Positions 16,594 through 60,361 of a stretch of 64,000 bases of DNA are shown in pieces. This DNA is from Promethearchaeia archaeon (GTDB lineage: Archaea; Asgardarchaeota; Lokiarchaeia; Sigyniarchaeales; SOKP01). How positions within the stretch are numbered: the first letter of the stretch is position 1; each line of letters starts with the position of its first letter. Made by a program: the position numbers and the translations under genes. A model generated the notes under the pieces. The model made no database searches. It saw only the letters and a program-made list of their open reading frames with translations, and had not been told where the DNA came from. Where the stretch lies: the NCBI GenBank assembly GCA_029856155.1, contig JAHQWL010000052.1, positions 107,130-171,129 of the forward strand. The letters run 5' to 3'.

Positions 16594-17349
16594 TTATAAT
16601 ATGGATTTTAACATAAATATTAATATCATTGTAATTATTCCAGCAAACAGTAAAATCAGTTGTCTTAAGCTATGTTTTAATCCTAATTTTTGATGCAATT
16701 CAGGTGTTAAATCTGATAAGGCAATATAAAGAAAACTTGCTGCTGAAATTGCTAGAACATAGGGAATTGCCAAGGAAATTAAATCTAAAAGAAAATACCC
16801 TATTATTGCAGCAGGTATGGTTGCAACTCCTGAAAGAAGATTATATAAAAAAGCTTTTTTTTTTGAATAATTCTTATCAATGAGTATTGCTAAATCGCCA
16901 ATCTCTTGGGGAATTTCATGAGCTATAACAGAAAGACTAATAGCAATTCCAAAAGTAAAATTAATTAAAAAAGATGCGGCAATTACAATACCATCTACAA
17001 AATTATGAAATGCATCACCTATAAGAATAACTGGACCTGCAGCTTCACCCGTTACAACACACTCAGCGTCGTGACAATGACGCCAAATGACCAATTTTTC
17101 AAGAATAAAAAAAAATATAAGACCTCCTAAAAAGTATGTCATTACAATTTGTATTGCATCTCCCGCTTTCGATATAGCTGTAGGAATCATTCCCAATGAT
17201 GCTGCGGCTAGTAACGTACCCGTAGCATAAGCAACCAAACTGGAAACTAGTGATTTTTGAATATTTTTAGTTAAATTAAGAAAAATAAAAGCTAAAACTA
17301 TAGCTCCAATACTCCCTAAAACACTAAACAATATAATCCATAGAAGAAT
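16594..17349 (-). CDS. ZIP-family divalent metal transporter (paralog; probable AUU start at 17349)
   Basis: GDAFHNFVDG and HEIPQEIGD. In-frame ILLWIILFS aligns with paralog MLIWIILFS; the track start TTG 17331 truncates TM1. Confidence 0.9.
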   Translation of the reverse strand: MLLWIILFSVLGSIGAIVLAFIFLNLTKNIQKSLVSSLVAYATGTLLAAASLGMIPTAISKAGDAIQIVMTYFLGGLIFFFILEKLVIWRHCHDAECVVTGEAAGPVILIGDAFHNFVDGIVIAASFLINFTFGIAISLSVIAHEIPQEIGDLAILIDKNYSKKKAFLYNLLSGVATIPAAIIGYFLLDLISLAIPYVLAISAASFLYIALSDLTPELHQKLGLKHSLRQLILLFAGIITMILIFMLKSIL

Positions 17350-17408
17350 TTATTATCACTTCAAATAGAAATAAAATTATTTTTTTTAGTTTTTTAATTA
17401 ATAAAAAT

Positions 17409-17426
17409 TTTACGATTCATCGTAAA
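17409..17426. promoter_or_regulatory. Palindromic operator candidate for the DtxR/MntR regulator
   Basis: TTTACGAT-TC-ATCGTAAA (perfect 8-bp arms, extendable by A/T tracts), about 60 bp upstream of the ZIP-ZIP-regulator operon. Confidence 0.65.
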
Positions 17427-17562
17427 TTTTTACATAAAATCATATAAATTAATCTCTATTAAATTTTCTCACAAAAGAACAAAGGTTGTCAAAAGGACTT
17501 AATAATAAAAAAACCCAATTAATTAATAAATCAAAATTAATATTTGTCTTAGAGGTTATTTC

Positions 17563-57723: not shown

Positions 57724-57817
57724 CGATATAATTGAATCAAAATTATTAATTATTATATTTACTTAAAGTTTCTGTAAATAAATTAACTTAAATTATCGTC
57801 CAGTAATGATTATTTTA

Positions 57818-59080
57818 TTAATTTTTTGAGTTAGAGAACTTGAATACAACTTTGACCGCATGTGATTCAGATTTATTAGCTAATGTATCAAATGCATCCT
57901 TGTAGGCAGTAAGTGGAAATTTATGAGTAATTAATATACTTGGATCAATTCTCTTTTTAGCTAAATACTCCATAAAAAATTCAAATGCATGAACTCTCTT
58001 CCCTTCAAATGTTTCTATGGAAAATGCATTAGATCCAATAATTTCAAGTTCTTTAAAGTAATGTGGTGTATTTTCCCATCTTTTTGGTGTGCTCACACCA
58101 AGAAAAACTAGTCGACCTTGAGCAGTTAATATACGTGTTCCTATTTCTAAAGACTCTGCAGAAGCAATAGTATCAATAATGCCATCAACACCATCTAATG
58201 ACCACTTTAAACCTCTTTCAGGAATAAATAATTCAGCATGCATATATTCAGCAACTTCCTCTATTAGACTTTCTTTGTTGTTTATAAAAACCTGCTTAGC
58301 GCCCAATTTTAATGCTAAATCCTTTTGAAATTGATATCGACCAATAGCGATAATATTCTTTACGTTAAAAATATTATTCAAGCACATTATAGCTAATAAT
58401 CCAATTACTCCTAATCCATAAACCAAGATTGTGCAACTGGGGTCAGGATTTAAGATTAATATCGAATGGAATGCAACAGCAAATGGATCTGCTAAAACAG
58501 CTTGATCAAATGAAACATTATCGGAAATCAAAAAACATTGAGATTCATGGATTCCAATATATGGAGCAAACCCCCCAAAATATTTTGTGGCTCCTAAATG
58601 CATCCCACTTGGTAAATTTCCTCTCTGGAAATTACTACAATGGGTATAATCACCTATCTTACATCTTGGGCATACTGGGCTGATCCCACGAGAAGCACAA
58701 GGAAACCATGGAGTTATGGCAACTCTATCACCAACACTAAATTTAGTTACATTTTTTCCTTTTTTTTCTATTATCCCTACTGGTTCATGCCCTAAAATTT
58801 GTGGAAACGTGATTAATGAGCGTAGAGGGTTATCACGAGCTCCGTTTAAAGTAAGTTCTTTCATATCGCTTCCACATATTCCACAATATACAGTCTTAAC
58901 TAATACCCAATCCTCAGAAATAAGTGTTGGGATAGGAACGTTCTTAATATTAATAGGACCATTTTTTTTCCAATAACCAGAAGAATTTATCTTTCCACGT
59001 AAGTATGCTTTCATTAACTTACCTATTTTCATTTCAAAAATCAAAGCCGGCATTAGTTCTATTTGTTTATTTTTACCCAA
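57818..59080 (-). CDS. Zn-dependent medium-chain alcohol dehydrogenase (MDR)
   Basis: CGICGSD, GHE, structural Zn cysteines, GLGVIG, ITHKFPL. Confidence 0.9.
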   Translation of the reverse strand: MGKNKQIELMPALIFEMKIGKLMKAYLRGKINSSGYWKKNGPINIKNVPIPTLISEDWVLVKTVYCGICGSDMKELTLNGARDNPLRSLITFPQILGHEPVGIIEKKGKNVTKFSVGDRVAITPWFPCASRGISPVCPRCKIGDYTHCSNFQRGNLPSGMHLGATKYFGGFAPYIGIHESQCFLISDNVSFDQAVLADPFAVAFHSILILNPDPSCTILVYGLGVIGLLAIMCLNNIFNVKNIIAIGRYQFQKDLALKLGAKQVFINNKESLIEEVAEYMHAELFIPERGLKWSLDGVDGIIDTIASAESLEIGTRILTAQGRLVFLGVSTPKRWENTPHYFKELEIIGSNAFSIETFEGKRVHAFEFFMEYLAKKRIDPSILITHKFPLTAYKDAFDTLANKSESHAVKVVFKFSNSKN

Positions 59081-59095
59081 TTAATTTTCACCTCT

Positions 59096-60361
59096 CTAAT
59101 CATTGTTAAATGAGAAAGCAACTTTAATCGATTTACTTTTTTTCTGTGCTCGCGCAGTTAAGAAAGCTCTTTTATAATTTTCTAATGGAAAACAATGTGT
59201 AATCATTGGTGAAGGATCAAGGCGTCCCTCTTGAAGAAAACGAAAATAATGATAATATGCATGCTCGCGACGGCCCTCAAATTCCTCAATTGCAAAAGCA
59301 TTACTTCCAATTATTTTTATTTCTTTAAAATACCATGGTGTCCACTCAAATCTATGTGGTGAAGAAACACCCGTTATAATTATTATTCCAGATATTAAAT
59401 GATTGGTTTCAACATTTTTTTTACGAGCTCTGACAATTCTAATGCCTGTTTCAAGTGTCTCTGGTGAAGCAACTGTATCAAATAAAAAGTCAACCCCTTC
59501 AATCAACCAAGGTTTCTTCTTTTTTAGATGATAAACATCACATTGAATATAATCTGCGATTTTTTCAATAAGTCTATTTGTAGGAGAAGAATCAATTACT
59601 AAATCAGCACCAAATCTTTTTGCCATATTTGCTTGGTGTGAAAAACGGGAAATTGCTACTACCCTTACATCCTCAAAAATCTTTTTTAATATTAAAATTG
59701 TGAGAAGTCCTAAATTACCACAACCATACACCGCACATATTGATCCTGGCTTAATTGGGGCTTTCAATATTGAATGAAATGCAACTGAAAAGGGATCTGA
59801 AAGCATTGCTTGATCCCAACTAATATTATCTGGAATGGGGATTGCCATAGATTCATGTGCAGGGAAATATTGGCTAAAACCCCCGGTAACATCGCTACTG
59901 TTTCCTGTATGTATACCAGTGGCAAGAGTACCTTTATTGAAATTCCGACATAGAGTATTTTTACCTATTTGACACGCTTTACAAAGTGGTTTTATACCTC
60001 TCGGTAAACAACTTATCCAAGGATTAAGTGCAACACGTTCCCCAATTTTAAAGTTTTTATTAAGTCCAACTTCTTCAACAAAACCAACAGCTTCATGTCC
60101 TAGTATTTGAGGCCAAGAAATCAAAGCTGTCATTGGATTATCCCTATTACCATCAAGAAAAACTTGTTTATGGTCACTTCCACATATTCCACATTGTTTC
60201 GTTTTAATTATAATCCAGTCTTTAGCTTTAATAATAGGTTTTGGCAATTCTTTTAATCTTAATGGTCCTAATCTTGTCAAAAAACCCTTTAAGCTAAATA
60301 ATCCGGCAATACGAGCCAACGCTAATTTTGAAAGATTGTATTGATAAAGGAGAGCTTTAAT
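59096..60361 (-). CDS. Zn-dependent MDR dehydrogenase, paralog (probable AUU start at 60361)
   Basis: CGICGSD, GHE, GCGNLG; in-frame IKALLYQYNLSKL upstream of the track start. Confidence 0.9.
   Translation of the reverse strand: MKALLYQYNLSKLALARIAGLFSLKGFLTRLGPLRLKELPKPIIKAKDWIIIKTKQCGICGSDHKQVFLDGNRDNPMTALISWPQILGHEAVGFVEEVGLNKNFKIGERVALNPWISCLPRGIKPLCKACQIGKNTLCRNFNKGTLATGIHTGNSSDVTGGFSQYFPAHESMAIPIPDNISWDQAMLSDPFSVAFHSILKAPIKPGSICAVYGCGNLGLLTILILKKIFEDVRVVAISRFSHQANMAKRFGADLVIDSSPTNRLIEKIADYIQCDVYHLKKKKPWLIEGVDFLFDTVASPETLETGIRIVRARKKNVETNHLISGIIIITGVSSPHRFEWTPWYFKEIKIIGSNAFAIEEFEGRREHAYYHYFRFLQEGRLDPSPMITHCFPLENYKRAFLTARAQKKSKSIKVAFSFNND

Follow-up and report, generated by a model that had tools for sequence, protein, structure and literature searches.

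Three protein-coding genes in a 64,000-nt stretch of an Asgard archaeal genome (Promethearchaeia archaeon, Lokiarchaeia, Sigyniarchaeales; GenBank assembly GCA_029856155.1, contig JAHQWL010000052.1, positions 107,130 to 171,129 of the forward strand; hereafter the window, whose numbering is used throughout) are very probably intact and translated from AUU codons, as a property of the lineage in which near-cognate initiation is anchored by a Shine-Dalgarno (SD) sequence. They encode a threonine synthase-like enzyme (thrC, AUU at 17566), a ZIP metal transporter (17349) and a zinc-type medium-chain dehydrogenase (MDR, 60361). At the three sites, features of initiation as in the bacterial infC gene were found: an AUU or other AUH codon (AUH, i.e. 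AUU, AUC or AUA; AUY, i.e. AUU or AUC) is aligned with the methionine of homologues without an in-frame canonical start upstream, an SD lies at the spacing of canonical starts (with one mismatch in MDR), and the weak codon is conserved, namely in 40 of 51 thrC loci, in subsets of the ZIP and MDR orthologues and, at the gene for initiation factor aIF1 elsewhere in the genome, in 22 of 22 genomes of the genus. The original prediction for this DNA, that SD-guided AUU initiation recurs here instead of three genes having lost their starts separately, is borne out by retention across species, by the coding character of the N-termini and by a signature that extends genome-wide and into a second species. 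Since no 16S gene was found in this genome, the anti-SD was taken from the 16S 3' end GGATCACCTCC of a same-genus genome (G023, chromosome), and the full SD is therefore GGAGGTGATC.

Probable AUU start sites of thrC, ZIP and MDR

The features of the thrC locus are as follows:
17527..17529, plus strand: in-frame TAA closing the thrC frame upstream, read from the sequence
17552..17556, plus strand: Shine-Dalgarno GAGGT of thrC, complementary to the 16S 3' end GGATCACCTCC
17563..17565, plus strand: first ATT, non-conserved, within the SD-to-start spacer; this column varies in orthologues
17566..19002, plus strand: thrC-like pyridoxal phosphate (PLP) enzyme, 478 aa from AUU 17566; Pfam PALP

The thrC product matches PF00291 (PALP) over its full length (profile positions 1-295 of 295, E=7.7e-61); its homologues are called threonine synthase in the sources, and the enzyme is assigned from sequence. 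It has a ThrC-like build with an N-terminal zinc ribbon (CxxC...CxxC), the PALP domain and a C-terminal winged helix-turn-helix resembling PadR/HxlR. This architecture is unusual; PF03551 is weak here (E=7.6e-4), and many homologues carry a precomputed PF03551 or PF01638 match. After the TAA, the frame contains ATT at both 17563 and 17566, and its first ATG, GTG or TTG is the TTG at 17830, 89 codons on, a stretch that includes CxxC...CxxC and SLGEGG. The original prediction had set the start at 17563; its coordinates, the TAA, the GAGGT and the motif-bearing 89 codons all hold, and the start has to be moved by one codon, the conserved Met-aligned codon being 17566. Among orthologues, column 17563 is occupied by 14 different codons (ATT, ATC, ACT, CTT, TTC, CCT, AGT, TTT, ACA, GGC, CAA, AGG, TCT and TTA) and is thus freely variable, which identifies it as spacer and 17566 as the start. 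This latter column reads ATT in 35, ATC in 5 and ATG in 4 of the 51 species-level loci, the few others being distant orthologues with a nearby canonical start. Alignment with ThrC begins at residue 1 in 17 same-genus genomes, and the AUU extends to orthologues at 57-60% identity. GAGGT lies 9 nt ahead of ATT 17566 (normalised spacer 6), within the peak for ATG starts. In AUY orthologues of at least 55% identity, the SD is present in 30 of 30 with 3-5 contiguous matches (five, i.e. GAGGT, in 24) at a normalised spacer of 5-6, whereas the four ATG orthologues have only 2-3 contiguous matches and hence no SD.

The ZIP genes and their SD-like site are arranged on the opposite strand:
15815..16573, minus strand: tandem ZIP paralogue with ATG start, for comparison; Pfam Zip
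16594..17349, minus strand: ZIP metal transporter, 251 aa, first base of the AUU at 17349; Pfam Zip, E=1.1e-33
17355..17360, minus strand: SD-like AGTGAT of ZIP, 5 nt ahead of ATT 17349

The ZIP product scores 117.2 bits with PF02535 against a cut-off of 35.1. As had been proposed, its ATT directly follows a stop codon, is preceded by AGTGAT 5 nt upstream and aligns with the methionine of the tandem paralogue (ATG at 16573); the five intervening nucleotides are AATAA, in which the in-frame TAA (17350-17352) abuts the ATT. GTGAT followed by 5 nt corresponds to the spacing seen most often at ATG starts, and it is retained in ZIP orthologues. In about 20 ZIP orthologues and paralogues of the genus, the Met column holds ATT, ATC or ATA, with a stop 3-9 nt upstream and (A/T/G)GTGAT plus 5 nt ahead of it, and the next canonical start in these copies is not conserved, lying mostly 18-207 nt downstream. 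Other copies have ATG in the same column, and a subgroup with an ATG one codon earlier and no SD represents ordinary starts. In the closest relative (G005:C16), the ZIP copy adjoining thrC contains two TGA and one TAA codons and is probably a pseudogene.

The MDR gene lies at the other end of the segment of interest:
57818..59080, minus strand: tandem MDR paralogue with TTG start behind a 7-nt SD, for comparison
59096..60361, minus strand: zinc-type medium-chain dehydrogenase (MDR), 421 aa, first base of the AUU at 60361; Pfam ADH_N and ADH_zinc_N
60367..60372, minus strand: SD-like GGGGAT of MDR, 5 nt ahead of ATT 60361

Both MDR domains exceed their cut-offs, ADH_N (GroES-like) with 72.8 and ADH_zinc_N with 42.5 bits. 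The leader was described correctly at the outset: AGGGGA (60368-60373) is followed by the six nucleotides TTTTGT and then by ATT 60361, from which IKALLYQY is read, and an in-frame TGA lies upstream at 60386-60388. The start column is ATT in this genome and two others, ATG in 10 orthologues and TTG in one. GGGGAT plus 5 nt is present in all three ATT orthologues (5 of 6 matches); the ten ATG orthologues show 2-4 of 6 matches, and both they and the TTG orthologue are without SD. The SD site therefore co-varies with the weak codon at thrC and at MDR. The N-terminus (M/I)KALLY.YxxSRLA is conserved, and all orthologues share (M/I)KAL(L/V)(Y/F). ZIP and MDR, the two AUU genes on the minus strand, each form a tandem pair with a paralogue and occupy the upstream position in it; the partner gene has a canonical start in both cases (ATG for ZIP and TTG behind a 7-nt SD for MDR).

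These comparisons bear on two simpler explanations. Translation could start at the next downstream canonical codon, the upstream stretch being an untranslated leader or a product of decay after start loss; this is how gene finders call thrC, whose database entry has 390 aa from TTG, and it would cost ZIP only six codons. However, the next canonical codon in thrC orthologues falls anywhere from +12 to +495 nt, so that there is no conserved alternative start, and the upstream part contains the zinc ribbon. Its first 88 codons are stop-free in 13 of 13 orthologues with 64-85% amino acid identity, and nucleotide differences are most frequent at third, then first, then second codon positions (281, 243 and 138). 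Because the stretch remains open and shows this coding substitution pattern, it appears to be translated. A downstream start would also deprive ZIP of its first transmembrane residues and MDR of its first strand, both of which are conserved in ATG orthologues, and is on balance very improbable. The second explanation, an ATG that was turned into ATT by an assembly or sequencing error, has in its favor that the sequence belongs to a metagenome-assembled genome (MAG; 4.10 Mb in 104 contigs, the window being part of contig C52 with a GC content of 29-30%) with 5.7% contamination. Its probability is nevertheless negligible, as the same ATT occurs in dozens of independent assemblies, including the closed chromosomes CP070831 and CP070805 of close relatives. 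The conservation of non-canonical codons among orthologues, which was named at the start as a point to verify, is established, with AUU or AUC retained across dozens of species-level genomes.

Start codons behind Shine-Dalgarno sites across the genome

For the genome-wide analysis, 3466 genes of at least 100 codons were called from long ORFs and codon usage, and leader codons were defined as those lying in frame past the upstream stop and ahead of the first ATG, GTG or TTG. At the first ATG starts of this genome, SD 5-mers are most frequent at normalised spacers of 3-6, and all three AUU sites fall into this range. A more permissive SD search that was made initially (any 5-mer, spacers 3-7) gave a background of 2.2% within genes and was replaced by leader-only tests. 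When only leader codons 10 or more codons ahead of the canonical start are considered, 5.5% of ATT, 4.7% of ATC and 3.6% of ATA codons follow an SD of at least 5 nt, in comparison to 0.5-0.8% of AAT, TTT, TTA and TAT codons and 1.3% of the rest. Under stricter parameters (SD of at least 5 nt, spacer 4-6, at most 13 codons from the stop and at least 5 codons ahead of the canonical start), 70 of 1819 AUH codons are SD-preceded vs 50 of 9591 other codons (odds ratio 7.6, p=2e-26). Out-of-frame canonical starts were considered as an explanation of these AUH candidates and account for none of the 70. The second codons of the candidates are rich in Ser and Lys. The preferred spacing places the TGA inside the SD core GGTGA in frame two codons ahead of the start, e.g. 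at C39:7817 (minus strand) and C22:23252 (minus strand), so that the ribosome-binding site itself closes the upstream frame; since this TGA is in frame at spacer 5, many AUH candidates are located exactly two codons past a stop.

Counted per gene, strongly SD-led starts comprise 159 ATG, 44 TTG, 13 GTG, 42 ATT, 21 ATA and 6 ATC, and about 9.5 of the 69 AUH starts are expected by chance. AUH codons thus make up about a fifth of the strongly SD-led starts of genes with at least 100 codons, corresponding to at least some 60 genes in this genome. Only about 9% of ATG starts carry such an SD, and the majority of genes are probably leaderless or rely on weaker sites. The initial remark that many ORFs begin at TTG partly reflects the listing of the first possible start, although TTG first starts are preceded by an SD about as often as ATG starts (8.9% vs 9.2%). 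Leaders of at least 40 codons without a start were found in 83 genes, about half of which have an SD and an AUH codon near the upstream stop. Codon-usage scoring of 20-codon leaders distinguishes coding sequence poorly from stop-free intergenic windows (0.31 vs 0.12 per codon) and gives no more than a rough estimate of about 100-130 genes with coding sequence ahead of the first canonical start.

The same test was applied to further genomes. The odds ratio is 15.7 (p=2e-6) for 400 kb of G006, a second species of the genus, while it amounts to 2.3 (p=0.08) in another family of the order (G032, 800 kb, 31% GC) and to 2.7 (p=0.08) in a third family (G033, 400 kb, 53.5% GC). The AUH-start trait is therefore clear within the genus, and the signals outside it are weaker and non-significant in the two sampled families. 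This distribution is relevant for the view that fidelity is normal and that each AUU was selected separately for low or regulated output, as in bacterial infC, with no lineage-wide change. Translation table 11 includes ATT, ATC and ATA as rare starts, the protein sequence of aIF1 is ordinary, and orthologues alternate between ATG and ATT (10 ATG vs 3 ATT in MDR, 4 ATG vs 40 ATT or ATC in thrC), all of which would agree with gene-by-gene tuning. However, 60 or more SD-led AUH starts in one genome, about a fifth of those that are strongly SD-led, together with the much weaker signal in two other families of the same order, point to a lineage-level property, and separate tuning is considered rather unlikely.

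Within the window, Rfam and tRNA scans returned no matches. Further long leaders do not call for an extension: the PfkB kinase (11147) is consistent with its own ATG, and no domain was found to extend upstream into the remaining ones. A scan of the intergenic ORFs of the window yielded one ambiguous small gene only. A small Cys-rich ORF (14607-14837, plus strand, 71-76 aa) could start either at ATG 14607, which lies within tATGGAGGTG, or at ATA 14622, for which the GGAGGTG of the same motif represents a correctly spaced 7-nt SD.

Initiator tRNA, aIF1 and the proposed mechanism

One initiator tRNA with the anticodon CAU was identified at C34:16556-16666 (plus strand) using Aragorn with the intron option. 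It presents A1:U72, three G-C pairs beside the anticodon loop and a 32-nt intron; the first two features mark it as an ordinary archaeal initiator tRNA. No second copy was detected by BLAST of the genome, and no initiator-like tRNA with another anticodon was found in the Aragorn tRNA list, which is incomplete (27 tRNAs) because many of the genes contain introns. Aragorn reported 15 tRNAs without and 27 with the intron option, and most tRNA genes of this organism are probably intron-bearing or hard to detect.

Mitochondria use AUA, AUU and AUC as starts, and the same three codons are employed here while CUG is hardly used. This similarity could indicate special decoding, in which a modified C34 of the initiator tRNA (like f5C in mitochondria) or initiation with an Ile-tRNA makes AUH codons cognate. 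Mitochondria differ, however, in having a modified tRNA-Met and no SD, whereas in this genome the initiator gene has a plain CAU anticodon and an SD is near-obligate. The single initiator tRNA gene has no initiator-like paralogue (modifications being unreadable from DNA), and the near-obligate presence of a strong SD is more readily explained as compensation for weak pairing than by cognate reading, which makes special decoding improbable.

The sole SUI1/aIF1 gene (C34:43737-44054, minus strand) lacks canonical start codons ahead of codon 88 (of 107). Its ATT is the third codon past a TAA, and alignment of the product with M. jannaschii aIF1 (4mo0) starts at residue 3. Both the ATT and the upstream AAGGTTGTGATAAGAGAGY are invariant in the 22 same-genus genomes, and in other families of the order the gene starts with GTG, TTG or ATA and in none with ATG. 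An AUU start on the gene of the factor itself would fit a feedback like those of infC and eIF1, without proving it. The suggested link between AUU usage and initiation fidelity can therefore be kept in part: it is the start codon of aIF1 alone that points to a fidelity circuit, whereas nothing in the protein does, and that fidelity is relaxed at all is what we infer.

In the proposed mechanism, the duplex of the SD with the 16S 3' end (GGAUCACCUCC) would position the small subunit with the codon that follows about 5-6 nt downstream in the P site. The single ordinary initiator Met-tRNA (CAU) would then pair with A and U and tolerate the mismatch at the third position, and the protein would hence begin with methionine. 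AUH starts may give a lower or tunable output, and aIF1, itself AUU-started, might set the tolerance for AUH codons.

Several points weigh against AUU initiation of thrC, ZIP and MDR as described here. All knowledge of the organism comes from metagenome assemblies, its initiation sites are read from the sequence, and the anti-SD had to be borrowed from a relative. Home-made gene calls render the genome-wide counts approximate. The MDR site corresponds to GGTGAT with one mismatch. In ZIP, this genome has a TTG six codons downstream of the ATT, though it is non-conserved: the codon is TTC, ATA or TTA in close relatives, and the next canonical codon of a 96%-identical orthologue is at +111. Finally, the sequence of aIF1 shows nothing unusual that would point to a relaxed factor.

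A broader hypothesis, held tentatively and with less confidence than the reading of the three genes, assumes a widened start set throughout the clade, in which AUU, AUA and AUC are routine behind an SD. Here, tolerance would be set by the AUU-started aIF1, forming an archaeal loop of the IF3/eIF1 type, and many Asgard proteins would be truncated or missing in current annotations.

Known systems and Asgard annotation

AUU-initiated genes are known from bacteria and include E. coli infC, which encodes IF3, and pcnB. As in these genes, the AUU described here stands behind an SD, and a gene for a fidelity factor is AUU-started (infC there, aIF1 here); reading by the normal initiator tRNA and a weak codon that lowers or regulates output, both features of the bacterial genes, are proposed for the archaeal ones. 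With regard to autoregulation as in infC, only the AUU start of aIF1 is known here. The bacterial examples are isolated genes, whereas AUU, AUA or AUC serves as the start of about 60 or more genes per genome in this lineage, whose initiation apparatus is of the eukaryote type (aIF1, aIF1A and aIF2). A further bacterial example is ebpA of Enterococcus faecalis (PMC4447247). In eukaryotes, near-cognate initiation is policed by eIF1, which is autoregulated via its own poor start context (PMC4705826). The archaeal aIF1 is homologous, and a weak start on the gene of the factor would provide the same feedback logic. Eukaryotes, however, rely on scanning without an SD and have CUG, GUG and ACG as their better near-cognates, while in the present case AUH codons predominate and the position is set by the SD.

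For archaea, reviews list AUG, GUG and UUG as starts and few SD sites were noted in Prometheoarchaeum (PMC7531240), and aIF1 destabilises complexes on non-AUG codons (PMC6237735). Ribosome profiling of Haloferax volcanii assigned about 30% of the putative alternative starts to near-cognate codons, which were set aside as possible false positives (PMC7261190). These sites likewise hint that archaeal ribosomes can initiate at near-cognates, but they are neither main starts of conserved genes nor linked to an SD. In an Asgard MAG of the Kariarchaeaceae, a GenBank truncation of AtubA was restored by means of a 'rare ATT start codon' near a ribosome-binding site (PMC13394414). That case concerns a single gene of another Asgard class, mentioned in a methods section, where neither recurrence nor conservation is claimed. 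Searches of the open-access literature yielded no systematic account of AUU starts in Asgard archaea. The aspect that appears to be new is SD-anchored near-cognate initiation that, judging from sequence comparison, would be routine in an Asgard lineage and kept by selection.

By gene finders restricted to ATG, GTG and TTG, genes of the thrC type are shortened or missed. The systematic mis-annotation that was anticipated is visible in public calls: ATT-start thrC orthologues are listed with 385-447 aa (e.g. 446 aa on CP070805), whereas ATG-bearing ones have 477 aa. In comparison to the 478 aa read here, the zinc ribbon is missing partly or completely from the shortened calls. Asgard proteomes are heavily mined for eukaryote-like proteins, and N-terminal errors affect domain calls, structure prediction and expression constructs. 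If the start set is indeed widened across the clade, truncated or missing proteins would account for a sizeable part of the Asgard proteomes published so far, with eukaryote-signature proteins possibly among them. A lineage near the eukaryotic stem with routine AUH starts and an AUU-started aIF1 would provide a natural system for the evolution of start-codon stringency towards the strict AUG rule of eukaryotes.

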